DNA of 64,000 bases, from contig CAYSUJ010000002.1 in assembly GCA_964434285.1 (NCBI GenBank), positions 57,913 through 121,912 of the forward strand. The letters are read 5' to 3'. The notes below the pieces were generated by a model, which saw only the letters and a program-made list of their open reading frames with translations, had not been told where the DNA came from and searched no databases. How positions within the stretch are numbered: position 1 is the first letter of the stretch; every line of letters begins with the position of its first letter. The translations under genes and the position numbers were made by a program. Source of the DNA: an uncultured Candidatus Saccharibacteria bacterium. GTDB lineage: Bacteria; Patescibacteriota; Minisyncoccia; Phycocordibacterales; UBA2100. Positions 48,185 through 61,696 of this stretch are shown one piece after another.

Positions 48185-48269
48185 GGAGGGGTGGCAGAGT
48201 GGTCTATCGCGCTTGTCTTGAAAACAAGAGTCTCGAAAGGGACCGTGAGTTCGAATCTCACCCCCTCCG
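48185..48269 (+). tRNA. tRNA-Ser (anticodon TGA)
   Basis: Acceptor GGAGGGG/CCCCTCC, anticodon loop CTTGAAA, long variable arm (GTCTCGAAAGGGACC), T loop TTCGAAT. It aligns well with the E. coli tRNA-Ser(UGA) architecture. Confidence 0.85.
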
Positions 48270-49895
48270 CATTTTGATTAGTTCAGGGTTAAAAGAAACA
48301 TTTTGTCCCTTGTATAAAGGATTTTTAGAGGTTCTAACCTGCACTAATTCACGTTCTGCCTCTGGCAGATTTTCGAAGATGAATTGGAACGGTTTACGTA
48401 GTTCTACATTGATATTTTGGTCTTTTAGTATGAGGTTCGAACCAAGACAAGCAAAGATAGCTCGTTTTGTTTCTATATCTCCATTCGTAAACCAAGTACT
48501 AGCGTAACGTGCAAAATTGTACGTTCTTTCGCTGAGTTCCACCCACTGTTCCATATCCTTGCTGTGAGCCTCTATATCGCCCTCTAGGAGGTGTTTTTCG
48601 TGCAATAGAGCATTCTTCAAGGTCTTATAATCACTGTCGCTGATAAGCGATCCATCGAGGTTGTCAGGCGATGTGTACTTGATAAGCATTGCGTCGATCT
48701 GCTTTGTGATAGTAAGAACACGCTTCTGCTTCTCAGCAAAAGACTGCTCATAACTTCGAGCTTCATTTTGGCGGATTTCGTGCAAATACTTAATTGCCCA
48801 ATCTCGGAATCGATCAGAAATAGTAAGACCGTGAATTACAGTATCAATCTGTCTACTCAGCTCAGCTAACTCAATCGTTCTTTCAGGGCACTTCTGGTCT
48901 ATTCGCTTTGTACAACGATAGTAAACGTAATAATGCACGTTTCCATTTTTCTGTCGTTTGGTCTTTTCTTCTGCGGTTATAGAAGCACCGCAATGACCGC
49001 ACTTCATCAGCCCAGTAAAAGCAAAACGTCTTGTAAGAGGACGAGGACGTGATCGATTATCACCTAAGAGATTCTGCACTCTCTCAAACTCTTCTTCCGT
49101 AACCATAGGTTTATGCAGACCCTTGTACCAATTCCCACTACCTTTTGGATACTCAAAATATCCGCAGTAAAAGCGGTTGTTGAACATCTTATAGATTGAC
49201 GCTCGACAAAGAGCAGTCCCTGCAAACTTCTTTGTTGTACGGGTCTTAAAGTTCCATTCTTTATTGGCAATTTCTATAATCTGTGGAGGTGTATATCGTC
49301 CTGTAAGCATCATCTGCCACATCTGATTGACCATATCGAATCTTTCAGGATCGGCGACAATGATATTTTCACCTTTCTCTCGAATAACTGTATTAAGATA
49401 GCCAAGCGGAGCACGAGACGGATACCAACCCATTTTCAATTTGGTTTCTAGTCCACGCTTTACGTTTTTACTCAAATCACGAGTGAACTGATCTGCAATT
49501 CCAAAGTCGATATACGATAACAATGCGTTATCTTCTGAAAGGTAAATACGATCGCTTGTGATGATTCGTTTAATTTCTCCACGTTTAAGCAAACCAAGAA
49601 TAATTCCAGCTTCCTCAGGATTTCTTGCAAGACGATCAAGCTTCCAACAGATTATTGCATTGATAGCACCATTTCTGATTTGCTTAATCATCGCATCAAA
49701 CTCCTTTCGTTGATATGGAGTTTCGGCAGATTTTTCTTCGTGAAAAGTCTTCTTGATTTTGAGATTTAACCTTTCAACCGTTTCATTCGCCCACTCTCTT
49801 TGAGAGCCGATACTAAGAATCTGCTTCTCCTTATCTTCGGTACTCTTTCGAGAGTAGTTGCATAGTATTTCATTTTCATTGTTAATTTTTTTCAT
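48258..49895 (-). CDS. large serine recombinase (integrase of the tRNA-Ser island)
   Basis: Resolvase N-terminal domain (YSRKSTEDKEKQ, ICWKLDRLARN), recombinase domain, Cys cluster for a zinc ribbon (CGHCGAS...YYRCTKR) and a coiled-coil C-terminus. Its last ~12 nt overlap the tRNA-Ser 3' end. 545 aa. Confidence 0.9.
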   Translation of the reverse strand: MKKINNENEILCNYSRKSTEDKEKQILSIGSQREWANETVERLNLKIKKTFHEEKSAETPYQRKEFDAMIKQIRNGAINAIICWKLDRLARNPEEAGIILGLLKRGEIKRIITSDRIYLSEDNALLSYIDFGIADQFTRDLSKNVKRGLETKLKMGWYPSRAPLGYLNTVIREKGENIIVADPERFDMVNQMWQMMLTGRYTPPQIIEIANKEWNFKTRTTKKFAGTALCRASIYKMFNNRFYCGYFEYPKGSGNWYKGLHKPMVTEEEFERVQNLLGDNRSRPRPLTRRFAFTGLMKCGHCGASITAEEKTKRQKNGNVHYYVYYRCTKRIDQKCPERTIELAELSRQIDTVIHGLTISDRFRDWAIKYLHEIRQNEARSYEQSFAEKQKRVLTITKQIDAMLIKYTSPDNLDGSLISDSDYKTLKNALLHEKHLLEGDIEAHSKDMEQWVELSERTYNFARYASTWFTNGDIETKRAIFACLGSNLILKDQNINVELRKPFQFIFENLPEAERELVQVRTSKNPLYKGQNVSFNPELIKMRRG

Positions 49896-50601: not shown

Positions 50602-51366
50602 TTAGAGCTTTCTTAAAGTACCGAGAGCGTCTTTGTATCTCTTACGATAAACAGCTACATCTGCATAGCCAAACCCTCGCTCTTTATCAAGAATGTGAAT
50701 TATTTTCTCAATTTCTAATGCAATCTTATGGTCATTTAATCCTTCTTGAGATAACAACCACACCCTCCGAGCCAGATCACCAATTTTTGAAACCTTTAGC
50801 GGTAGTTTTTCTTTTTTAAGCTGAGTGAGTTTTTTCAGGGCTTTCTCAATATCTCGCTTAGTTGTCCATTCAAATATCTCTACGTATAAACTATTCGGAT
50901 TGATAAGAAACTTATTGATGTCCCTGTCTGCATCGGTATGAGTAATGGAAAAAATTGGATAGTGGCTTATAGAGCTATATTTAGCTCTCATAGGAGCAAT
51001 AATTGTGTCATATACAAATTGCCATACACTCGCTCGATATACTTTTGGAATCTCAAAATCAGCCAGTAAAGTGTCTGTCTCCTGTACGAGATTATGATAC
51101 CTACTCTTCGATTTGTGCTCCCATACGAGAGCTTCGGCAGAATCAGAAAAACCTGCTTCTGGCAATTTATATTTCTTGCGAAGTTGCTTAATCCTAGTTT
51201 GAAAATGAGGGTGGTCAGAAAGAAGTACAAAAAATCTCTCACGACTCTCTATAAACTTTTTATCTGGTGTACCACTGGTACACCGAGACGATACAATTCC
51301 TATATTTTCTTCTAGTTTCTGCTTGAGTATTTGATTTTTATTTTTTCCGTTAGCTCTTTCAGTCAT
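50602..51366 (-). CDS. hypothetical protein (254 aa), unknown function, in the island operon
   Basis: No motif recognised. Sits 5 nt downstream of the DUF2779-like gene. Confidence 0.35.
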   Translation of the reverse strand: MTERANGKNKNQILKQKLEENIGIVSSRCTSGTPDKKFIESRERFFVLLSDHPHFQTRIKQLRKKYKLPEAGFSDSAEALVWEHKSKSRYHNLVQETDTLLADFEIPKVYRASVWQFVYDTIIAPMRAKYSSISHYPIFSITHTDADRDINKFLINPNSLYVEIFEWTTKRDIEKALKKLTQLKKEKLPLKVSKIGDLARRVWLLSQEGLNDHKIALEIEKIIHILDKERGFGYADVAVYRKRYKDALGTLRKL

Positions 51367-51370
51367 AGAT

Positions 51371-52984
51371 TTATTTTTTCACTAGTTCAGAAAAGAACTT
51401 CCACAACACGTACATTGCATAAGTATCGAGTTTACAGTATTCAAGCATTTGTCGTTCCTTTTCTTTCATTTCATCACCGACCAATTCTCCGACAGTGATT
51501 TTTCTATACGCTTCAATAGCATCAGTACCGCTTTGAACACCTAAAACCTTATATGAAAGATGTGGAGCGAGAACGGGTAAAACTTTCTTAATAGACGCTC
51601 TGCCCTCGAAGCCCGGATGTATGTAATGCTGACCGTCAACAATATCCATCAAATCATAAGTACGACTAACAACATCAAGAAAGAAATCTTTATAATCAGG
51701 CAGTAGGTTTGCAAGTTCCTTGTTTCGAGAGTTTTCAAAAGTTTTATACCAAGAGATTACTGTTCCTGAGTTACCAATATGTTTTCGCAGACTTTCTGCA
51801 ATACGCTCTGACGGCTCTCCGTCCAGTATTAGAGACTCGTAATGCTTTGGTTCTGAATCCTTATTTTCAAGTACGTGTAAGGAGTATTGAAATACTATTT
51901 GTTGATACGGACGATACCCGCTATATGGAGGTATTGCGGTGGGATATGTTTCGTAATCAAGAAAGTAAAGAGGAAAAATTAGTGAATCAAGTTCGGCTTT
52001 TAATGACTCAAAATCAACCATTGGCTCTTGAGACTTGTGGACTAGCACTTGGTTCAGCTTTCTAGGTTTACTTTGCTTTGCTGTACCTCTCGCTTCTTTG
52101 GGTTTCAAGCGATCATCAACAGGTACGTCAGCAACCTCTAAGATGCCCTCTGCGAGCAATTCACTCAGGTATTTCTTACTATTACCAATTCTATTGAGAT
52201 CGTGAACGCTATATGCGGGCACGTGAGGGTTTATATAACCAAATGCTGAACAGTGCGAATTACGTCCTTTGTAGTAGCAAGGACAGGGTGCAGACGGTAC
52301 TTCTGTGCTTAATAAGTAAGTATGGGCATAGGACATCTCAGAAATCGCAATCGTTTTAAGAATATCTATAACCTCAGTTTTATCTTCGATAATGAAAAGT
52401 TGATTTGGAGTAAAATCAAGATCGCCACTTCTTACATACGCACGATTAAGTCTTACTAGAAACTTTTGATTTATTGAAACTCCACATTCTTCTGCGACAT
52501 TTACCTGAAAAGCGAGATCGTATTCATATTGAAGCTCTTTCTTTTTGTTGACTCGTTTCGGTTTACCGTCGTCTTCCTCCTCGTCCTCATCTTCGGTTGT
52601 GGACATTTTAATTTCGTAAATATCATACTTTCCAACTGAATCATTCCACTTCAAAACGTCCAGTGCGGCGAGATATTTATCTGTTGCAAAAACAGGTTGA
52701 AAAATGACAGGTGTTCGCTCTGCTATTAGTTTCTTAGTAAGCTCTTGTGCACCCGCACTTCGTCGCTCAACGAGAAATCCATTGGGGAACATTCCACGTG
52801 CCAACTCTTCCACATCATTACCCATTTCTGCTAAAGACTTCTCAAACTCAGACGGTTCAAATCTTGCGTATTCTTCAAGTCGATTTCTCTTAACCCAAAC
52901 ATTATTTGGACATTCTCGATAAAGTATAAAGTCTGTTTTTGTTAAAAGGTTTGTTGCCATACGTTTGTTAGCCGAGAACATCAA
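51371..52984 (-). CDS. predicted nuclease fusion: N-terminal Cas4/RecB-like PD-(D/E)xK Fe-S nuclease + C-terminal DnaQ-like (DEDD) exonuclease-like domain (TM0106/DUF2779-like)
   Basis: N-terminus has LTKTDFILYRECP, then D..EIK (YDIYEIKMS), the RecB-family QxxxY motif (QYEYDLAF) and a C-terminal Cys triad (CPCYYKGRNSHC). The C-terminal domain has an Exo-I-like FLDYETY and YCKLDTYAMYVLW. 537 aa. Confidence 0.55.
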   Translation of the reverse strand: MMFSANKRMATNLLTKTDFILYRECPNNVWVKRNRLEEYARFEPSEFEKSLAEMGNDVEELARGMFPNGFLVERRSAGAQELTKKLIAERTPVIFQPVFATDKYLAALDVLKWNDSVGKYDIYEIKMSTTEDEDEEEDDGKPKRVNKKKELQYEYDLAFQVNVAEECGVSINQKFLVRLNRAYVRSGDLDFTPNQLFIIEDKTEVIDILKTIAISEMSYAHTYLLSTEVPSAPCPCYYKGRNSHCSAFGYINPHVPAYSVHDLNRIGNSKKYLSELLAEGILEVADVPVDDRLKPKEARGTAKQSKPRKLNQVLVHKSQEPMVDFESLKAELDSLIFPLYFLDYETYPTAIPPYSGYRPYQQIVFQYSLHVLENKDSEPKHYESLILDGEPSERIAESLRKHIGNSGTVISWYKTFENSRNKELANLLPDYKDFFLDVVSRTYDLMDIVDGQHYIHPGFEGRASIKKVLPVLAPHLSYKVLGVQSGTDAIEAYRKITVGELVGDEMKEKERQMLEYCKLDTYAMYVLWKFFSELVKK

Positions 52985-54314
52985 CGATCTTATCTATCGT
53001 CAAAATCCCTGTCTCAAGAAATAGGTCTTCGAGTTGTGTGTGGTCGATGTCGGCGTTTGATAATTTTTTCCCAACTACATAAAGTAAATCCTTAGCTCGA
53101 ACCAAAACAACAGGAACACGAGTGACTCTGTAAATATCCTTTAGTGAGCTATCAAGTGATGTTCTATCGTTAAACTCTGACGAGACGATAAGAAAAGATA
53201 CTTTGTCGACTCTTTGTCTTTGGAGTTCTCTTTGTTTATTTTTAATATATTCAACAATCTCTCTATCCTGTGTACCGATCGTATACTCTTTTTCACGAGC
53301 TTTTGCATCGTACACGACGGCGTAATAACCCGAATGCCCATCAGAAGAAATTGCGACACCATCTGGCTCTCTACCTCTTCCTTGACCTAATTCAGTCGCA
53401 TTAAAACCTAGAATTGTAAAAACATAACGGAGTTTTGTTTCAAACGCCTTTTCAGGTTTAATGTTTCTTTTTATTGACCATTCAGTTTCTTGATTCAATG
53501 CAAGTTTTTCAAGATCGGCAACAATAGAAGGAATCCAACTTTCATCGTCCACTTTAATTGCCTGAGTCGATTTACTTTGATTAGGAGTTGTCTTTATGTT
53601 TTCTTCTATAACATCTGTATGTTTTTTGGTGAACTGCTTCCAAAGAACGTGCTCTACAAACCATACAGGATGACGATCATTTACATTTGCTTTTTCAATA
53701 TAAAAAGTACGGATTGCAGAATATATTTCTACAAAGTATTTATATTCATCTCCAGTTGTCTCTTGTGTTTTGAAGTCAAAACCAAGATTTTCCAGCACAT
53801 TTTTTGCTGACCCATAAAAAACTGGGAGAGTTTCAGGACTTTGAACTTCCCAAAAATAAGACAACATAAAAGACAGATTCACTCTCGGAATACTTTTAGG
53901 ATTGTCGGATTTTGTCTTGAGCTGAGTTAGGTATTCTGCGAGATTATTTATCTTTACTACCGCTTCATCTAGTGTTTGAGGTAAAGAGAGGGCTTCTTTT
54001 AAGTGATCATCTTTTTCAGAATCCTCAATGTTTTTTACAAACTGATTCAACTGCATTTGACCACTAAAGCCACTAAATCCCCAATATGGATATTTACGAC
54101 TCATCAAATCACTTTTCTCCTTAAACTCAGTAGAAGATAGAGCACCTTTCAGAAACTCATTAACAATATCTTTAATTTCAGCGATGGCTTCAACTCTCTT
54201 ATCATCAAAAGATGCAAACTCTATATCAACACCATTATCGGTAACAGTAGAGGATTTTTGAAACTCCTCTAGGTATACTCGCAATTCGTTTTCTTGTTCT
54301 TGTGTAAGATTCAT
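52968..54314 (-). CDS. protein with unknown N-terminal domain and a C-terminal Mrr-type PD-(D/E)xK restriction-endonuclease-like domain
   Basis: C-terminus FETKLRYVFTILGFNATELGQGRGREPDGVAISSDGHSGYYAVVYDAKAREKEY matches the Mrr_cat pattern (GDGGIDG...QAK). Start is likely ATG 54314 (MNLTQEQ) rather than 54422, which overlaps hsdR. It overlaps the downstream nuclease gene by 17 nt. Confidence 0.5.
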   Translation of the reverse strand: MNLTQEQENELRVYLEEFQKSSTVTDNGVDIEFASFDDKRVEAIAEIKDIVNEFLKGALSSTEFKEKSDLMSRKYPYWGFSGFSGQMQLNQFVKNIEDSEKDDHLKEALSLPQTLDEAVVKINNLAEYLTQLKTKSDNPKSIPRVNLSFMLSYFWEVQSPETLPVFYGSAKNVLENLGFDFKTQETTGDEYKYFVEIYSAIRTFYIEKANVNDRHPVWFVEHVLWKQFTKKHTDVIEENIKTTPNQSKSTQAIKVDDESWIPSIVADLEKLALNQETEWSIKRNIKPEKAFETKLRYVFTILGFNATELGQGRGREPDGVAISSDGHSGYYAVVYDAKAREKEYTIGTQDREIVEYIKNKQRELQRQRVDKVSFLIVSSEFNDRTSLDSSLKDIYRVTRVPVVLVRAKDLLYVVGKKLSNADIDHTQLEDLFLETGILTIDKIVDVLG

Positions 54315-54327
54315 AAATCCTAATTTG

Positions 54328-56781
54328 TTATCTAATAATTGAATACACTTTCTCTCGAATCGACCGCACAAATCCAAACAATCCCTCAGGATATGTTGAC
54401 TGTATAGCTTCCTTTTTAGCATTCATATTTGGCAACAGGAATGTCTGGGCTGAAAGATTTTCTTCTCCACTGGTTTTATATTTCTCCATAATGTCTCTGA
54501 TCGCTTCACCAACCACTTTTCCGTACTGGTCGATATTCTGTGCATTCTCTCGCATAAAGTGTTTTACACGATCCTCACGAGTGATAAGTGGTGCATTAAA
54601 GGCAATATGAGCAATCACATCAAAAGCATCGATGTCTTCGAGATTCTCAATAGACTTAATGAGTCCGATATTCACTCGTTTGTCTTCAAGGTCTGTAATC
54701 AACTGCTCACGCTTATCTGAATCGAGCCACAACTCTCTTAGTTCGGTTGTCGAATGTACAGTTTGCACAATCTTGTCTCCTGAGTATTTTCGATACTCCG
54801 CATACGACAATTTTGAGCCATCAAACTCAACTTCAATTTCCTCGTCGATTGTTACAGTAATTCCCTTAACCGTAATCTTCTTTGGTGCAGACCTCCACGG
54901 CTTCAAGCGGAACTCATAAGGCATCTCTTCGTCCGATGTATGCGGAGCAAGTTTTTTGCCTAACTTCTTGTAATTAGCGTGCTCGATGGTGATACGCACT
55001 TCATCATTTGACGGCAACCCAAATATCTTAAAGAGTCCGTTCTCGTCTGTTTTTCCTGCTTTCTCCCAACGCCCAAGCTTTATTTTTATGTTGGCATTTG
55101 CAACAGGTTCTTCTTTTCTATCGTCAACAACAACGCCCATAAGAAGTTTATCGAAAGGTGGCAACGGTTCTTCTGGTGGCTCTGGTGGCTCAGGTTTTTC
55201 AGTTGGAATATCCCACTCATCAATGAGGCGGGTAGCGTTAGTGAAATCGAGAATCCTAAAGAAACCCTTACCCTCGAACAAGCGTGATCCACGTCCTATA
55301 ATCTGCTTGAAAAGCACCCTAGAGGCGATTGGACGCATAAATACGATGTTCTGTACGTGCGGAATATCAACGCCAGTAGAGAGCAAATCAACAGTGGTGG
55401 CGATGACAGGCATAGCTCGCTCTTTGTCTCGGAACTTGGTCAGGTCGTCTTTATCTTCTGCTACGACACGAGAGGCATATTCTTCTGAGTTTTTAATCTC
55501 ATTAAGCTTATCTTTTACTGCTTGTGCGTGTGCCATATCGACACAAAAAATAATCGTCTTTCCATACGGATTCGTCTTATCAAGAACTTCTATTACCTTA
55601 CGAGAAAGCAATTCAATCTGTTGTGGAATCGTAACAGCTTTTTCGTATTCAGGTGGTTCGTAAAAATCTTTTACATCTTCGGGATTTATTTCATCGTCGT
55701 AAATTACTTCTTCGGCGGCTGAAACGTTCAAACCCTCTCGGTAAAGATTAGTTGTGATTTTGTATATCTTATAGGGCACAAGATAGCCGTCCTCGATTGC
55801 CTGACCGAGCGAGTATTCAAAGACTGGTTCTCCAAAGTATTCGTACACGTCGATGTTATCCTCACGCTTTGGAGTAGCGGTCATACCGAAGTTTTGAGCT
55901 GTACTGAAATGTTCAAGAATCAAACCCCAATCTCCGTATCGGGAACGATGACACTCGTCAATTACAATCAAATCAAAGAAGTCCTGAGGAATCTGCTTGT
56001 AAAACTCATTCGTGAAAAGTGTTTGGTACGTAGCAAAATAAATATCCTTGTTTTTATTAAAAGTTCCACCCTCAATTTTGCACCGAGCGTCGCCAAAAGG
56101 TTCATAGTCTCGACTGTATGCGTCATCACGTAAGATAACTCGATCACAAAGAAATAGCACTCGGCTAACAGTCTTTGACTTGTAGAGCTTCCAAATAATT
56201 TGAAACGATGTAAATGTTTTTCCTGTACCAGTTGCCATTGTTAGAAGTGTTGCGTGCTTCTTGCTTGCAATACTCTCAATAGAGTTCTTGATTGCAGTTT
56301 CCTGATATGCACGAGGTCGGCGAGCACCAGTGAGGTATAGCGGGTACATTAAAGCGTCCTGCTTTACTTCAACTAATCCTTTCCATTCAACATACGCTTC
56401 ATACATCTGCTCAGGAGAAAGAAAGTCTGTTACTTCCTCAGTTTTCATTGTTCGTCGATCGTGCAAATAGGTAGTATGTCCATTTGAAATATATGCAAAA
56501 GGTACATCAAGACGCTTAGCATAGTCTTGTGCTTGGCTCAGGTGCTTGAGAGGGTCTTCATCTTCTGCTTTTGCCTCAAGTACACCAATGACAACGTTCT
56601 TATACATCACTACATAGTCAGCAAACTTAGCAGTAGGTAAACGCTTGAAATCCTCACCCTCGACGAAGAAGCGATCATCTGAGATCGGATACTGGCGGAG
56701 GAGATATTCTTCTTTCCAACCGCTTTCTAGTATTTTTGGGTCGATGAGCTTGACCCTTGTATCATCTTCTGAGTAAGGCAT
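54328..56781 (-). CDS. hsdR: Type I restriction enzyme R subunit (HsdR)
   Basis: N-terminal HsdR nuclease region (MPYSEDDTRVKLIDPKILESGW), helicase motif I LLTMATGTGKT, motif II VIDECHRS, and motifs III-VI. 817 aa. Confidence 0.85.
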   Translation of the reverse strand: MPYSEDDTRVKLIDPKILESGWKEEYLLRQYPISDDRFFVEGEDFKRLPTAKFADYVVMYKNVVIGVLEAKAEDEDPLKHLSQAQDYAKRLDVPFAYISNGHTTYLHDRRTMKTEEVTDFLSPEQMYEAYVEWKGLVEVKQDALMYPLYLTGARRPRAYQETAIKNSIESIASKKHATLLTMATGTGKTFTSFQIIWKLYKSKTVSRVLFLCDRVILRDDAYSRDYEPFGDARCKIEGGTFNKNKDIYFATYQTLFTNEFYKQIPQDFFDLIVIDECHRSRYGDWGLILEHFSTAQNFGMTATPKREDNIDVYEYFGEPVFEYSLGQAIEDGYLVPYKIYKITTNLYREGLNVSAAEEVIYDDEINPEDVKDFYEPPEYEKAVTIPQQIELLSRKVIEVLDKTNPYGKTIIFCVDMAHAQAVKDKLNEIKNSEEYASRVVAEDKDDLTKFRDKERAMPVIATTVDLLSTGVDIPHVQNIVFMRPIASRVLFKQIIGRGSRLFEGKGFFRILDFTNATRLIDEWDIPTEKPEPPEPPEEPLPPFDKLLMGVVVDDRKEEPVANANIKIKLGRWEKAGKTDENGLFKIFGLPSNDEVRITIEHANYKKLGKKLAPHTSDEEMPYEFRLKPWRSAPKKITVKGITVTIDEEIEVEFDGSKLSYAEYRKYSGDKIVQTVHSTTELRELWLDSDKREQLITDLEDKRVNIGLIKSIENLEDIDAFDVIAHIAFNAPLITREDRVKHFMRENAQNIDQYGKVVGEAIRDIMEKYKTSGEENLSAQTFLLPNMNAKKEAIQSTYPEGLFGFVRSIREKVYSIIR

Positions 56782-56785
56782 ATAT

Positions 56786-58450
56786 TTATACTTGTAAAAT
56801 CTTTTGATCCCACTTATTTTTCTTTATAAAAGAAATGGTGCGATAGGTTTCGGAATCTTGAAATCTATTCGGCTTCCACTCCTGCAACTTCTGACGTATC
56901 ACGACATCGTCAGAAGTCTTCTCGTCCTCAATAATTTTGCAAACTGTCGCCAACAATTCAATTGAATGACTATCAGACGAGAAATAGTGAGGCATCATTT
57001 TGTCTAAGTAGTCTGTCATTTGCTGTTTAAGCGTATCTTCTACCTGATTTAAGATATAGCTACCGCTTACTCCTAAAGCAAGCACTTCCATACCCTTAAC
57101 ACCTTTTCTCATAAAAAACTGCTTCCGAGAAGATAGTCCATCTTCAACGGCACGCTTAATTTCTGAGCTGTAAGGTCCAAACGATTGCTGTGTAAAAGAA
57201 ACACCTAAAGGGGTTTTGAAAACTGTCTGTGCGATGTATAAAACTTTGGCAACAACCATCTCTCCTCTCTGAAAACGCCTAACTATAAGTGAAATTGCTT
57301 GCTGTACAGGAGAAACTACCGTACTAGCAGTTTGAACAGGTGCATTTTGTAATCTTTGCAACATTGAGAATAAAAATCTGTTTTTCACCTCAAGAGCATT
57401 CGTTTCAACCCTCTCTATAATGTTTTTAAGCTCAATAATATATTGGATTTTCTTAACAATTCTTTTTTGAGTCAGCAGATCAGGCAAGAGGATTTTTTCT
57501 TTCAAGAAAATATCCTCTTTGAATCTCTTTCTGTTTGTTGCTCCTTGACTAGCTATCTGAAATAGCTTCACAAAAGCAGGTGTACTTAGTATTTCATTTA
57601 AGAAAAGAGGGTCGATTGATTTTTCTTGTATGTTATAGGATAGAAAATCTGCGGTCGTTATAGCTCCCTCACAATCCTGCGGAATGATACCAAAAGCACC
57701 GTTTCGTGCATCGATTTTTGAAATAACGAATTGACCCGCTTTAACTACATATTGTTTCTTTGTACCAATATCAGAACCGAGAACTTTGTCTCTTAATTGA
57801 ACACCATTTGAATACATTCTGATTGTTATTCTTTTGTACAAAGTGTCATCAGCAACCTGATGTGTCTGATTATTTCGTATTAACAGATCGGAAATAGTAA
57901 ACTCTTTTAACTCATAGCGTGCTAAATCTCCAACAACCATACGACGCAATCCCGCAATATCTTGCGAGGCATTTTCTGACACTGAAAGTAATCTGTTTGT
58001 AACGTCCTGAACTTTTTCTCCTTGTGATGCAATTAAATCTTGCTTATCAATAGGTAGGAAAGGTATCTCAAAGTTTCCAAAATCTCCCTTGTTTATAGAC
58101 TTTTTAGCTGCTCCCTTTGCAAGATTCGCAACAATATCCTTTGAAAGTGCAGTAAGAAGAGCGTAATAAAACTTGAGATTTATTTTATCAGTATATTCTT
58201 TTTGTGGAGTGAGAATAAAACAGAGATCGCTAGCGATAAACTTACCTTCGACAAAGTGAACTCTACCTAACGACCCACTGGCTGCTACGGCAATTACCAA
58301 AGCGGTACAGTCGTGAGAGTAGCTATTGTGATTTTTCCATTCTTTGGAGGCAGTAATAAAAGTAAACTCACCAGACTTGTTTTTGGTGCTTTGTAATGTG
58401 CCTTTCTCAATAACGAAAAGCTCTTTAATTTTCTTGGTTTCAATCTTCAT
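56786..58450 (-). CDS. hsdS: Type I restriction enzyme S subunit (HsdS) with an extra ~210-aa C-terminal domain
   Basis: Two target-recognition-domain halves with conserved helical spacers (FEIPFLPIDKQDLIASQGEKVQDV and ILLPDLLTQKRIVKKIQYIIELKNI), followed by about 210 additional residues. Typical HsdS is about 400-450 aa; this one is 554 aa. Confidence 0.7.
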   Translation of the reverse strand: MKIETKKIKELFVIEKGTLQSTKNKSGEFTFITASKEWKNHNSYSHDCTALVIAVAASGSLGRVHFVEGKFIASDLCFILTPQKEYTDKINLKFYYALLTALSKDIVANLAKGAAKKSINKGDFGNFEIPFLPIDKQDLIASQGEKVQDVTNRLLSVSENASQDIAGLRRMVVGDLARYELKEFTISDLLIRNNQTHQVADDTLYKRITIRMYSNGVQLRDKVLGSDIGTKKQYVVKAGQFVISKIDARNGAFGIIPQDCEGAITTADFLSYNIQEKSIDPLFLNEILSTPAFVKLFQIASQGATNRKRFKEDIFLKEKILLPDLLTQKRIVKKIQYIIELKNIIERVETNALEVKNRFLFSMLQRLQNAPVQTASTVVSPVQQAISLIVRRFQRGEMVVAKVLYIAQTVFKTPLGVSFTQQSFGPYSSEIKRAVEDGLSSRKQFFMRKGVKGMEVLALGVSGSYILNQVEDTLKQQMTDYLDKMMPHYFSSDSHSIELLATVCKIIEDEKTSDDVVIRQKLQEWKPNRFQDSETYRTISFIKKNKWDQKILQV

Positions 58451-59897
58451 ATAAAATCTTTTCCAAATCAGCAGATATTTTTTCTGCGTCTTTTAAGGAA
58501 GTTTTGATTGAGTGCAACAACTCCTTTTCTGTTTTATCAGCGTCTTCGTTAGCAATAGAGTTTGTATTCTTGACCGAAAGAGAGTATCCATTTTCTTTAA
58601 TGGCTTCTATCGGAACAACCCAACTATGGTCAGATTTTGCACGCTTTTTCCATAGCGTAAAAATATCTTTCAAATCTTCCTCCTGAATTGGCTGAGTTCT
58701 TGTGAAGTTGCCTTTGAGTTCACCGAACCACACTTCTTTTGTCGATCCTGTCTTCTCAAAAAAGATTAAGCTAGTCTTCACTGTTGCACCCATTTGAGCA
58801 AAAGCACCTTGTGGAAGTTGAATAACTGAATGAACATTAAACTTTTCCAAAAGTTCTTGGCGTATGCGAGCCATTACTCCACCACCGAACAACACATTAC
58901 CCTCAGGCAAAATAACACCGCAACGACCGCCATTTTTTAGTCGCTTCATAATGTATTGGAGTGCTAATGCCTCAGTCGCTCCAACAGCTATTGGGTAGTT
59001 ACTCTGAACGGCTTTGGTTTCTTCTGCTCCAAAAGGAGGGTTGGTTAAAATAACGTCCATTTTTGCACTCTCAGAAATGTTGTGTACATCTTCTGAGAAA
59101 GTATTTACACGGGTTAAATTAGGAACAAGAATATGGTGCAAAATGAGGTTCATTGTTCCAATTAAGTAAGGTAAGGGCTTCTTTTCTTGTCCGTAAAAAG
59201 TTTTAGTTTGCAAAGTTTTCCAAGTGCGAATATCTTTTGATGAGTTTTCGTATAGATAATCAAAGCTTTCAACAAGAAAACCACCCGATCCTACGAATGG
59301 GTCGAAAATGGTGTCGCCGATTTTTGGATCGACCATTTTTATCATCAACTTAATAATCGGGCGAGGAGTATAGAACTCTCCTGACCAACCACCCTCGCTT
59401 CCCATAGCTTGCAAGATTTCCTCGTATACCTGAGAAAGCAGGTGAGTATCTTGGAAATGATGCTTTTCAATTTGATCGAGAATCTCTACTACTTCAAGCA
59501 GGGTATACGGCGAATACACTTTGTTGTGAAGCTCACGAAATATCTCTCCGATTTTATCTTTTTCTCGTGTCCCTTTAAGTGATTTAAGATATGGAAAAAG
59601 TTTCTTATTTACAAAATGAATCAACTCTTCTTTGTCTTTCCAATCTTTTTTAGCCCAAGCTGACCATCGGTACTCACTATCGATAACAGGTTTATATTTC
59701 TTACCCTCTGCTTCATCAAGGTCTTTAAGTTGATCCTCAACACCTTCAAAGATTCTTAGGAAAAGAAGCCAAGAAAACTGCTCGATATAATCTTTTGCAC
59801 CTACACCATCATCACGACGCAAAATATCGCAGACCTTTTTGATGTCCGCTTTCGTAAGTCCTGTCTTTGTTGGTTTTTGTTTACGTTTCTTGGTCAT
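58440..59897 (-). CDS. hsdM: Type I restriction-modification N6-adenine DNA methyltransferase (HsdM)
   Basis: HsdM N-terminal domain, SAM-binding DPFVGSGGFL, catalytic LTNPPFG. 485 aa. Overlaps hsdS by 11 nt. Confidence 0.9.
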   Translation of the reverse strand: MTKKRKQKPTKTGLTKADIKKVCDILRRDDGVGAKDYIEQFSWLLFLRIFEGVEDQLKDLDEAEGKKYKPVIDSEYRWSAWAKKDWKDKEELIHFVNKKLFPYLKSLKGTREKDKIGEIFRELHNKVYSPYTLLEVVEILDQIEKHHFQDTHLLSQVYEEILQAMGSEGGWSGEFYTPRPIIKLMIKMVDPKIGDTIFDPFVGSGGFLVESFDYLYENSSKDIRTWKTLQTKTFYGQEKKPLPYLIGTMNLILHHILVPNLTRVNTFSEDVHNISESAKMDVILTNPPFGAEETKAVQSNYPIAVGATEALALQYIMKRLKNGGRCGVILPEGNVLFGGGVMARIRQELLEKFNVHSVIQLPQGAFAQMGATVKTSLIFFEKTGSTKEVWFGELKGNFTRTQPIQEEDLKDIFTLWKKRAKSDHSWVVPIEAIKENGYSLSVKNTNSIANEDADKTEKELLHSIKTSLKDAEKISADLEKILYED

Positions 59898-60100
59898 TGG
59901 TTTTTCTTTGAAAGTTTCTTTGATTTCGACTCGACATTTGTATTATCGGCAAGAAACTTTTTGAGATCGCTTTCGCTGATCCTCCAATAACCGATTTTGG
60001 TAGCTCGCAGTTTACCAGAGTGAATATAGCGAAAGACAGAACGATCGCTGACTCTCAGAATACCTGCAACTTCTTTCAAGCTGTGTAGCTTTTCGGTCAT
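59894..60100 (-). CDS. excisionase/AlpA/MerR-like helix-turn-helix protein (possible Xis or R-M controller)
   Basis: HTH LKEVAGILRVSDRSVFRYIHSGKLRATKIGYWRISESDL. Its stop overlaps the hsdM start (ATGA). ORF track is 59894..60217; MTEKLHS (60100) is the likelier start. Confidence 0.5.
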   Translation of the reverse strand: MTEKLHSLKEVAGILRVSDRSVFRYIHSGKLRATKIGYWRISESDLKKFLADNTNVESKSKKLSKKNQ

Positions 60101-60390
60101 ATAATTGGTATTTACATCATACCTCGGATCGTGTACTTGTGTCAAAATGTGGCAAGGTGATATTTGTGTAAAAGTATTCACGTTTTTGAATGTAATGTAA
60201 TTAGGATTATGTAACATTGACGCTATTTTTTCGGCTCATTTTTCATATCCAAAAAGATCGTTTTGCCGTTCTCATCGATTCTAATTTTTCCTTCTGCAAG
60301 TAGTCGCCTATGAATCCCTCGAAGCACCTCTCCGAGTTCAGAGATGCTCTTTATTTCCGCATCAGTAAAAATGTGTTTCTTCTTTTTCAT

Positions 60391-61323
60391 TTAAGCTACG
60401 TTCATTCCCTCAAAACACTCTGCGACTTTGATTGCTTTCTCTCCAATATCGACCTCGTCATCGTATACAATCAGCATTTCAAGATTCTTGTGCCGACTGA
60501 ACTTCCGTACGTCTCGAACATCAAAGCGTTTTAAGAGTGTAGTAATGAAATAGTGGCGAAAACCGTGCACAGTCTTGTCGATTCCTAGCTCCTCAAACAA
60601 CTCTTTCATCTCTCGCTTGATTGTCATTGTCGTTATCCTCTCGCTCTTACGATTTCCCAGTCCTTTGAATACTGCACCTGACGATACTTTATTTATCTTG
60701 AGATGAGATCGGAGGGCTTTTACTGTTTCTGGTAGTAGGTATATGGATTCCTTGTCATCTCGTCCTTTCCCTTGAACGGAAGCTTTCTTATTCACAAGCG
60801 ACAAATCATCAATATCAAGGCGAATAATCTCTATCTGTCGCAGTCCTTGAAACGCTAGAAGACAAAAAAGTGCTTTGAGTCTGGCGTATTTTGCTGTCGA
60901 GGGTAGATTATGCACTTTCGCTACCAACGTCTCTATTTCTGCTTGATTTAAGCCCTCTAACTTGTGTCTATTGCTTTGATTAAAAGCTTTGATGTTTTGG
61001 GTAATATCTGTCGGGATCAGTCCTCTGCGATTCAACTCCTTGAGAAAAATGCGAGCCGTAGCGAGATATTTATTCTTCGTCGCTACGGCAAAGTCTGATC
61101 GTTCTCCAAGATGTCGTTTGAACTCTAGGAACGTGTTGTGATTGAAAGCGGTATTTTGTACGAACGTGAGAAAAAGTCCTATTCTGCTTTTATATTCCTG
61201 TCTTGTGCTCAGGTTCACGTCGAGTAGGTCGAATATCTGCTTTGCCTTTTCCTCAAATCCCTCAGTTGCGAAGACCGATTGATTTTGCGGTAGCAGATTA
61301 TTTGTCATAGCAGATATGCTCAA
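60391..61323 (-). CDS. tyrosine recombinase / phage-type integrase
   Basis: N-terminal SAM-like core-binding domain. The C-terminal catalytic region has HGFRHYFITTL and a tyrosine in NLEMLIVYDDE. 310 aa. Confidence 0.8.
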   Translation of the reverse strand: MSISAMTNNLLPQNQSVFATEGFEEKAKQIFDLLDVNLSTRQEYKSRIGLFLTFVQNTAFNHNTFLEFKRHLGERSDFAVATKNKYLATARIFLKELNRRGLIPTDITQNIKAFNQSNRHKLEGLNQAEIETLVAKVHNLPSTAKYARLKALFCLLAFQGLRQIEIIRLDIDDLSLVNKKASVQGKGRDDKESIYLLPETVKALRSHLKINKVSSGAVFKGLGNRKSERITTMTIKREMKELFEELGIDKTVHGFRHYFITTLLKRFDVRDVRKFSRHKNLEMLIVYDDEVDIGEKAIKVAECFEGMNVA

Positions 61324-61696
61324 CAGCTAGACCTCTTTGAATGAATGACGGCTCTAGCATTTCGTGTCGATGACACTTTTTATAATCTCCCTCCGAGCAC
61401 ATCACACACATTCTTTCTCCTCCATTATTCTCTGCAATAACACAGATTTCATCTATCGTGTCCTCGTAATCTACATTCTCTCCTTTACCGCCCAAGTTAT
61501 TACCTCTCCACCGATACTCGATTCCTGCTTCTGCCATAGACTCTCGCAGGGCTTTCTCGTTGTACTGAGGTTGAAACCGTGAGCGTGGGATCGAACGAAT
61601 GTCGATTAAAACCTTTATATTGTTGTCTTTGAGTTTTTGTAAAAACTCAGTGATTGGCTTGGTGCTGTGTCCAATCGTGAATATGGTTGCTTTCAT
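61298..61696 (-). CDS. DUF488-family protein
   Basis: IFTIGHS...VLIDIRSIPRSRFQPQYN...AGIEY...LGG matches the DUF488 pattern from memory. 132 aa. Confidence 0.5.
   Translation of the reverse strand: MKATIFTIGHSTKPITEFLQKLKDNNIKVLIDIRSIPRSRFQPQYNEKALRESMAEAGIEYRWRGNNLGGKGENVDYEDTIDEICVIAENNGGERMCVMCSEGDYKKCHRHEMLEPSFIQRGLAVEHICYDK

Follow-up and report, generated by a model that had tools for sequence, protein, structure and literature searches.

[quoted passage not shown] The 64,000-nucleotide stretch of DNA analysed here, which we call the window, raises the question of whether this view is complete, for its hsdS gene runs on well past the point where a specificity subunit normally ends. An earlier note, made from the sequence alone, had claimed that a Panacea/DUF4065-like extension of ~210 residues follows the DNA-recognition part of this HsdS, that such an accessory, toxin-neutralising type of domain would be an unusual addition to an S subunit, and that it could couple R-M specificity to a toxin module, perhaps to the neighbouring pair of nuclease genes. 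We therefore ask what the extension is, how far it has spread among HsdS proteins, and what it may do there.

The hsd operon and its extended specificity subunit

The operon lies on the minus strand of the window and is tightly packed in the order HTH_17 gene, hsdM, hsdS and hsdR, with the 3' end of hsdM overlapping the start of hsdS by 11 nt and the start of hsdR lying 4 nt past the hsdS stop. Its features are the following, the cassette 3' of hsdR being given as context only.

59894..60217, minus strand: HTH_17 gene (excisionase/MerR-like) at the head of the operon, PF12728 E=5e-12
58440..59897, minus strand: hsdM, N6_Mtase E=2e-62 and HsdM_N
56786..58450, minus strand: hsdS with its extension (hsdS::ext), an uninterrupted 554-aa open reading frame including its stop at 56786-56788, Methylase_S E=8e-20
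57881..58450, minus strand: HsdS residues 1-190, TRD1 and central conserved helix, with the Pfam Methylase_S match at residues 3-148
57347..57880, minus strand: HsdS residues 191-368, TRD2 and C-terminal conserved helix, the canonical end of HsdS
57311..57346, minus strand: linker, residues 369-380 (NAPVQTASTVVS), poorly conserved and with no regular secondary structure
56789..57310, minus strand: residues 381-554, domain resembling the C-terminal one of DarG (Panacea superfamily), a winged helix and then a helical bundle
54328..56781, minus strand: hsdR, 817 aa, with ResIII, Helicase_C, EcoEI_R_C and CarbopepD_reg_2 matches
50602..54422, minus strand: variable cassette 3' of hsdR, shown as context
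52968-54422, minus strand: FokI-cleavage-domain protein of the cassette (Pfam)
51371-52984, minus strand: DUF2779 protein of the cassette (Pfam)
50602-51366, minus strand: 254-aa protein of the cassette without a family match (Pfam)

Up to its last conserved helix the protein is an ordinary specificity subunit. Two Methylase_S (PF01420) TRD regions at residues ~3-340 are the sole Pfam matches in HsdS, 67 Specificity_I models of PADLOC match it (best E=5e-31), and its gene stands in one operon with hsdM and hsdR. Canonical Type I systems likewise have two TRDs with conserved helices, a tight operon and swappable cassettes at the operon edges. Within the product of hsdR there is an insert that resembles CarboxypepD_reg, besides an EcoEI_R_C domain. 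The hsdM/hsdS/hsdR arrangement of the window recurs in the related loci L031-L039, two of which (L038 and L039) also have the HTH_17 gene, and TRD1 is common to the window protein and the half-size HsdS of L032 (E=5e-51). The whole operon is carried on a low-GC island with two recombinases that adjoins a tRNA-Ser gene; the island is integrative, though a search of its far end for an att-type copy of the 3' half of tRNA-Ser found none.

The HsdS models available in PADLOC and NCBIfam cease to match the window protein around residues 356-381 (Specificity_I spans residues 186-381, and mad5, a profile of 392 positions, spans residues 4-356), and the final conserved HsdS helix stops at Q368, where the linker begins. 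Past a normal HsdS there are ~186-190 aa, made up of the 12-aa linker and a folded domain of 172 aa (residues 381-552). The extension claimed in the earlier note is thus present but shorter than the ~210 aa stated, given that the interval 56786-57418 (residues 345-554) also takes in ~24 residues of the HsdS helix.

We are very confident both that this fusion is real and that its domain has been correctly identified. Six contigs, drawn from independent samples of JGI, Logan and ENA, encode the identical 554-aa protein, which rules out an artefact of assembly or a frameshift; a third TRD is ruled out by the absence of any Methylase_S signal from residues 369-554 in Pfam and by the different fold, and a dimerisation coiled coil of HsdS by the winged helix and helical bundle of the domain. 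With the unusual length of HsdS as the sole point in their favour, there is hardly any chance that one of these three accounts for the extension. Five apparent copies of the domain as a separate open reading frame beside hsdS (in L003, L009, L012, L013 and L014) are actually frameshifted or IS-disrupted fusions.

The extension is a DarG-type C-terminal domain

The first indication of kinship comes from the models of DarG, an antitoxin whose C-terminal domain binds and inhibits the toxin DarT as one part of a dual mechanism. The PADLOC DarG model (PDLC02990) matches the extension over profile positions 147-310 of 329 (E=3e-11), and the NCBIfam DarG family NF048014 matches it with its C-terminal half only (positions 183-324 of 338, E=1e-8); the DarG match of the extension amounts to 35 bits against a family cut-off of 250. 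A family profile of 31 sequences, named A2, aligned over the whole domain with the C-terminal domain of M. tuberculosis DarG in the PDB (7yk3_B, E=3e-10), both having in common the motifs K..LY, F/YGPY, ELLA, W and K...F/Y, with an identity of ~16% between the extension and M. tuberculosis DarG. An AF2 model of the extension reached a pLDDT of 97 and a pTM of 0.92, the pLDDT being lower only over the 6 linker residues with which the model begins, and Foldseek paired this model with 7yk3_D/B at a probability of 1.0, the DarG C-terminal domain being the sole structural match over its full length. Searches of the extension in Pfam, in PHROGs and, as a single sequence, in the PDB returned no meaningful match. 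On profile and model evidence together, the extension is judged homologous to the C-terminal, DarT-binding domain of DarG, and it is a non-catalytic domain of the DarG-CTD type. The earlier suggestion of an accessory domain of the antitoxin type, neither TRD nor coiled coil, is borne out by these DarG matches.

The window protein is, however, not a DarG. The counterpart of the C-terminal, DarT-binding domain is there, but the N-terminal ADP-ribosyl-glycohydrolase macrodomain of DarG is not, with no Pfam Macro match and with only the C-terminal part of the DarG profile aligned. A search for DarT (DUF4433) gave no match in the ORFs of the island, outside 1-45 kb of the window, with Pfam, PADLOC and PDB sequences, or in 30 neighbour ORFs of related loci. 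Thus, where DarG has a macrodomain and a DarT partner, the extension lacks the former and shows no DarT in the loci examined, and where the DarG domain is joined to a glycohydrolase, the extension is joined to HsdS instead. The two also differ in charge, since the extension is basic, whereas the C-terminal domain of DarG is reportedly an ssDNA mimic, going by the title of the 2023 report by Deep et al.

Panacea and YwgA-like relatives

The Panacea/DUF4065 assignment of the earlier note stood only in part. When the proposed Pfam search was run, PF13274 (gathering score 25.7 bits) gave no match to the window extension at E<=1, so the window protein does not fall in that family. Yet PF13274 appears below threshold in 7 of the 31 A2 members (best E=4e-4) and in several standalone relatives (E 0.002-0.04), and it is the only Pfam family that recurs among the extension relatives, never above threshold. 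The motif quoted in the earlier note (AK.LY.AQ ... FGPY) is genuine and lies among the best-conserved parts of the family. A profile-profile comparison of the family with a narrow Panacea alignment of 57 sequences (Neff 3.4) gave a non-significant hhalign probability of 2-13%, and the comparison with a single Panacea protein was not significant either, despite the motifs aligning in identical order in hhalign against Panacea. Because that probability is only 2-13%, we do not claim homology to Panacea at the sequence level from hhalign. DUF4065 proteins have been described as homologous to the DarG C-terminal domain (PMC13621843, 2026).

In fold, the extension has the winged-helix core with added helices that characterises Panacea; Panacea/DUF4065 is ~30 residues shorter, and the extension has additional C-terminal helices. 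In organisation the two differ, in that a Panacea antitoxin has a gene of its own and shares a two-gene operon with its cognate toxin, while the extension forms part of HsdS and no partner gene is conserved beside it. At the level of sequence, then, the extension family is to be placed as DarG-CTD/YwgA-like and not as PF13274 Panacea; the extension, Panacea/DUF4065 and the YwgA-like proteins form one fold group and very probably one superfamily.

Apart from HsdS proteins, the extension profile brought up as relatives only the YwgA-like proteins just named. These are standalone proteins of ~175-195 aa (JGI 'uncharacterized protein YwgA') which match the C-terminal region of DarG with E values down to 1e-13, and full-length DarG, with macrodomain and C-terminal domain, was not seen among the non-HsdS relatives checked. 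In the loci with visible context (L024-L026 and L029), their genes lie immediately 3' of a gene for an HD + HD_assoc_2 phosphohydrolase. They differ from the extension in standing alone outside the hsd operon and in being only 22-25% identical to it; conversely, the window domain is fused and its island has no HD gene. The domain group therefore has three contexts: it accompanies DarT, it accompanies an HD enzyme, or it is joined to HsdS.

Distribution and conservation of the fusion

Far from being unusual, as had been supposed, the fusion defines a large lineage of HsdS proteins. When the profile was run exhaustively against 1.84 billion cluster representatives (clusters at 50% identity), 170 clusters passed E<=1e-3, and 97 of these also passed E<=1e-10. 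From the 170 clusters 152 representatives were retrieved, and 91 of them are at least 500 aa long (median 600 aa), with N-terminal parts that are HsdS; every one of these 91 long representatives carries the domain, in all cases ending within 15 residues of the C-terminus. A word-indexed homology search gave 5 relatives of the extension, or 21 with the family profile. Among the named genomes that carry the fusion, Bacteroidota predominate (Flavobacterium, Chryseobacterium, Chitinophagales and Saprospiraceae), and it is also found in Ignavibacteria, Leptospira, an acidobacterium and uncultured lineages. A scan of viral contigs found the fusion on none of them, and no locus came out of a scan of genomes made with the subfamily to which the window protein belongs. 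We conclude that the fusion is ancient and widespread. The domain is kept in half-size, single-TRD HsdS proteins and in HsdM-HsdS fusions as well, and from the half-size forms it follows that a complex would hold one or two copies of it. The fusion occurs together with two distinct HsdR clades, of ~817 aa and of ~925-940 aa.

The extension is also the best-conserved segment of these proteins, with a mean identity to the window protein of 34% across 90 fusions, against 20-24% for TRDs and helices, and with 49-69% against 15-30% elsewhere among the ten closest relatives, both sets having been selected by the extension and so biased upwards in its favour. Within the window subfamily, identity to the window is 77-81% for HsdR, 68-76% for HsdM, 52-59% for the extension and 24-48% for the conserved helices of HsdS. 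The fused domains are, moreover, uniformly basic, with a mean net charge of +8 and a median pI of 9.4 (n=87).

Neighbouring genes

We sampled the neighbourhood in 28 loci from the homology scans, 17 of them genome and 11 metagenome loci, and all 28 are hsd operons or fragments of them, in which hsdM and hsdR are the sole recurring neighbours. The cassettes beside hsdS::ext or after hsdR are of the defence type and of many kinds: a NOV_C nuclease, GmrSD, an AbiC-like protein, AAA_15/21 ATPases (one with an HNH nuclease), a MORC-like ATPase, a KAP NTPase, a PD-(D/E)XK nuclease, DUF3800, GIY-YIG/RAMA, reverse-transcriptase fragments, and DUF4268 with an AAA ATPase; in L002, a bona fide MqsA-Panacea antitoxin is among the neighbours. 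The FokI-like gene of the window cassette stands beside the identical HsdS::ext in the window and in L019, whereas in L018, where HsdS::ext and HsdR are again identical, the next gene is not the FokI-like one but a DUF4268 gene. The whole cassette of L032-L039 is different from that of the window, and close relatives have at the cassette position GmrSD, reverse-transcriptase fragments, an AAA ATPase, or nothing. Within the covered stretch of L006 hsdM comes directly after hsdS::ext, and within that of L039 a recombinase comes after hsdR, with no accessory gene in either. PADLOC gave no match for the genes neighbouring the operon in the window.

The edges of hsd operons are known as hotspots at which defence modules are embedded. 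One of these modules is darTG, which lies between hsdS and hsdR in EPEC (gene order hsdM-hsdS-darT-darG-hsdR) and in other bacteria. In the EPEC operon and in EcoprrI/PrrC the accessory module has a pair of genes to itself, unlike the present case, where an antitoxin-type domain is covalently joined to HsdS and a gene for a cognate toxin cannot be seen. PrrC is kept silent by EcoprrI. The proposed coupling of the extension to the neighbouring nuclease pair did not hold up, because the identical HsdS::ext occurs with another cassette, because L006 and L039 have no accessory gene, and because embedded modules are already known at hsd edges.

The same loci bear on a broader form of that idea, in which an adjacent toxin or nuclease, whatever its family, would be kept inactive on the R-M complex and be freed by phage anti-restriction proteins. 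By analogy this would suit the homologues of the domain, since the DarG C-terminal domain and Panacea neutralise toxins through direct binding and Panacea pairs with many unrelated toxins, and a defence-type gene does adjoin hsdS::ext or hsdR in most loci. These adjacent genes are, however, heterogeneous and in some loci absent, with no family recurring across loci and with unlike cassettes beside one and the same HsdS::ext; embedded cassettes are common also in hsd operons that lack the domain, and the neighbours in the window are unmatched in PADLOC. We consider it unlikely that the domain holds such effectors.

Possible functions of the domain

The reading that we favour, and only tentatively, is that the domain regulates its own R-M enzyme through the binding of a partner. 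Like its relatives, the HsdS-borne domain would act by binding a protein and not by catalysis, and its partner would most likely be a component of the R-M enzyme, because only hsdM and hsdR always accompany it; our best guess would be HsdR, the potentially self-toxic nuclease/motor subunit. The domain may then serve as a built-in antitoxin-like brake on restriction, or as a regulator of its assembly or turnover. Uncontrolled activity of HsdR is lethal, and EcoKI-type restriction alleviation consists of the degradation of HsdR by ClpXP. A brake would be useful when the island operon enters an unmethylated host, and this version is attractive because the operon rides on an integrative island and must establish itself in such hosts. 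The version of a turnover adaptor is attractive because of EcoKI-type alleviation by ClpXP and because the Panacea protein SocA works via proteolysis of its toxin, SocB. Against the favoured reading, the faster divergence of the extension relative to HsdR and HsdM argues against a tight interface with a constant surface, and the occurrence of the fusion with two distinct HsdR clades argues against HsdR as the partner.

A more specific version, which we regard as rather doubtful, would make the domain a hard-wired antitoxin that binds HsdR and either sequesters it or passes it to a ClpXP-type protease, or, as a variant, latches interchangeable effectors. If this were true, the extension would be a lineage-specific switch for restriction alleviation, and under the variant the R-M complex would be a guard, whose disruption by phage anti-restriction would free a second line of defence. 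Physical crosstalk between DarG-type C-terminal domains and R-M enzymes, if true, could also explain why DarTG is frequent inside Type I operons.

As an alternative to regulation of the R-M enzyme through a protein partner, the winged helix could bind nucleic acid, adding a non-specific contact to DNA or RNA or autoregulating the operon as many antitoxins do. For a strongly basic domain, which the fused domains consistently are, nucleic-acid binding fits at least as well as protein binding does. The sole full-length structural match, however, is a known protein binder, the operon already has its dedicated HTH_17 gene, and for autoregulation a regulator tethered to the enzyme would be unusual, all of which leaves this possibility with a rather small chance of being correct. 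We give still less credit to the domain as a sensor or decoy that captures acidic DNA-mimic anti-restriction proteins of the Ocr/ArdA type, or another phage trigger; its basic charge, the defence-island context and the fact that it diverges faster than HsdM and HsdR, as a surface in an arms race should, would agree with this role, but its core motifs are strongly conserved, and we find it improbable.

Very improbable, finally, is an inert remnant of a partly deleted darTG-like module that once lay between hsdS and hsdR, for which hsdM-hsdS::ext-hsdR would be the expected deletion product: a relic would decay, but here an intact domain keeps the same position in ~90 diverged lineages of several phyla, is more conserved than other parts of HsdS and is modelled with a pLDDT of 97.

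Origin and significance

Because darTG is known between hsdS and hsdR, we put forward as a likely origin the hypothesis that a deletion took out darT and the macrodomain, running from the 3' end of hsdS to within darG, and so left exactly the order hsdM-hsdS::CTD-hsdR. Two observations touch on this origin, namely the low identity of the extension to M. tuberculosis DarG given above and the lack of a full-length DarG among the relatives checked.

What the window holds is a new combination of two known kinds, a Type I HsdS and an antitoxin domain of the DarG/Panacea type. Our literature search found no description of an HsdS-antitoxin or HsdS-DUF4065 fusion, and nothing relevant on YwgA. The only source name that we saw for a member of the fusion, the fragment P0001, is “hypothetical protein”, and the Pfam, NCBIfam and PADLOC models tested assign no family to its extension. 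That ~90 lineages of HsdS carry a conserved antitoxin-type, partner-binding domain points to control at a further level, or to a coupling with other defences, neither of them described in the literature searched. It also provides a concrete test of two linked questions raised in 2016, why DarTG is so frequent inside Type I operons and whether there is crosstalk between the two systems. For the DarG-CTD/Panacea/YwgA group itself, HsdS becomes a third context beside the toxin-antitoxin and the HD-phosphohydrolase pairs.

The cassette slot behind hsdR and its surroundings

The slot behind hsdR is a swappable cassette position, and it was compared at the following places:

Window 50602-54422, cassette slot after hsdR
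L018:11902-15217, the slot in a locus with an extended HsdS and an HsdR identical to those of the window
L032-L039, the slot downstream of hsdR in close relatives

In the window and in L019, the slot holds a FokI-like gene, a DUF2779 gene, and a gene for a 254-aa protein, and L018, whose extended HsdS and HsdR are identical, carries DUF4268, DUF2779, and a 251-aa gene product instead. In the close relatives, the slot contains GmrSD with DUF5655, RT fragments, or DUF4268 with AAA_15/21, or is empty. The start of the FokI-like gene is uncertain because its longest ORF, which overlaps the hsdR 3' end by 95 nt (window 54328-54422), and the public call in L019 (469 aa), which starts later and still overlaps it by ~50 nt, begin at different points.

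The window HsdR (54328-56781) has an insert that is unusual among HsdR proteins, namely a CarboxypepD_reg-like beta-sandwich segment (residues ~548-614; E about 1e-5 to 1e-6, under the Pfam threshold) placed after the helicase core and before the EcoEI_R_C domain.

The operon sits on a low-GC stretch (~0.35-0.41 GC vs. 0.45-0.52 in the flanks), for which two intervals are of note:

Window 48185-49895, low-GC stretch
Window 60391-61696, low-GC stretch

A tRNA-Ser lies at its start, and the last 13 nt of this tRNA gene are shared with the gene of a large serine recombinase. A search of the far end for repeats of the tRNA-Ser 3' half found none of at least 12 nt. Tyrosine recombinase, DUF488, and DUF5659 genes also lie within it.

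Architectures of the extension and its relatives

Some relatives have a half-size, single-TRD HsdS with the extension (371 and 375 aa), and two loci join HsdM, half HsdS, and the extension in one ORF. These forms are found at:

L032:7404-8519, half-size HsdS with a TRD homologous to TRD1 of the window HsdS
L034:2861-3988, half-size HsdS with extension
L036:5925-8519, HsdM-HsdS-extension ORF (864 aa; zero N bases)
L041:3-1847, HsdM-HsdS-extension ORF

The GEM..AK motif (GEMVVAK in the window) has a conserved Met, Met398 (~57241-57243), which is most likely a structural residue; gene callers start the truncated ORFs P0002, P0029, and P0049 at this Met, and internal initiation there might, with lower probability, give a free domain.

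The protein P0005 (NCBI, 241 aa; from a 1.5-kb contig) is an RHS-repeat protein (PF25023 and PF03527) whose last 79 residues are 95% identical to the C-terminus of the window's extension; either misassembly or true recombination may have produced it.

Standalone relatives (~184-194 aa; P0136, P0123), of a type labeled "YwgA" by JGI, follow an HD + HD_assoc_2 phosphohydrolase gene (~415-423 aa) at 1-3 nt:

L024:1329-3156, gene pair
L029:172-2003, gene pair
L025, L026, and L030, gene pairs

The two genes appear to form an uncharacterised module based on a domain of the DarG-CTD type, with a possible role in defence or as a toxin-antitoxin system.

One Bacteroidota operon also encodes a Panacea antitoxin:

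L002:6717-12822, extended hsdS, NOV_C nuclease gene, 115-aa ORF, MqsA-HTH-Panacea gene, and hsdM, in this order

Its antitoxin is a genuine Panacea protein (PF13274, E=5e-19), so that this single operon combines the two branches of the fold group.
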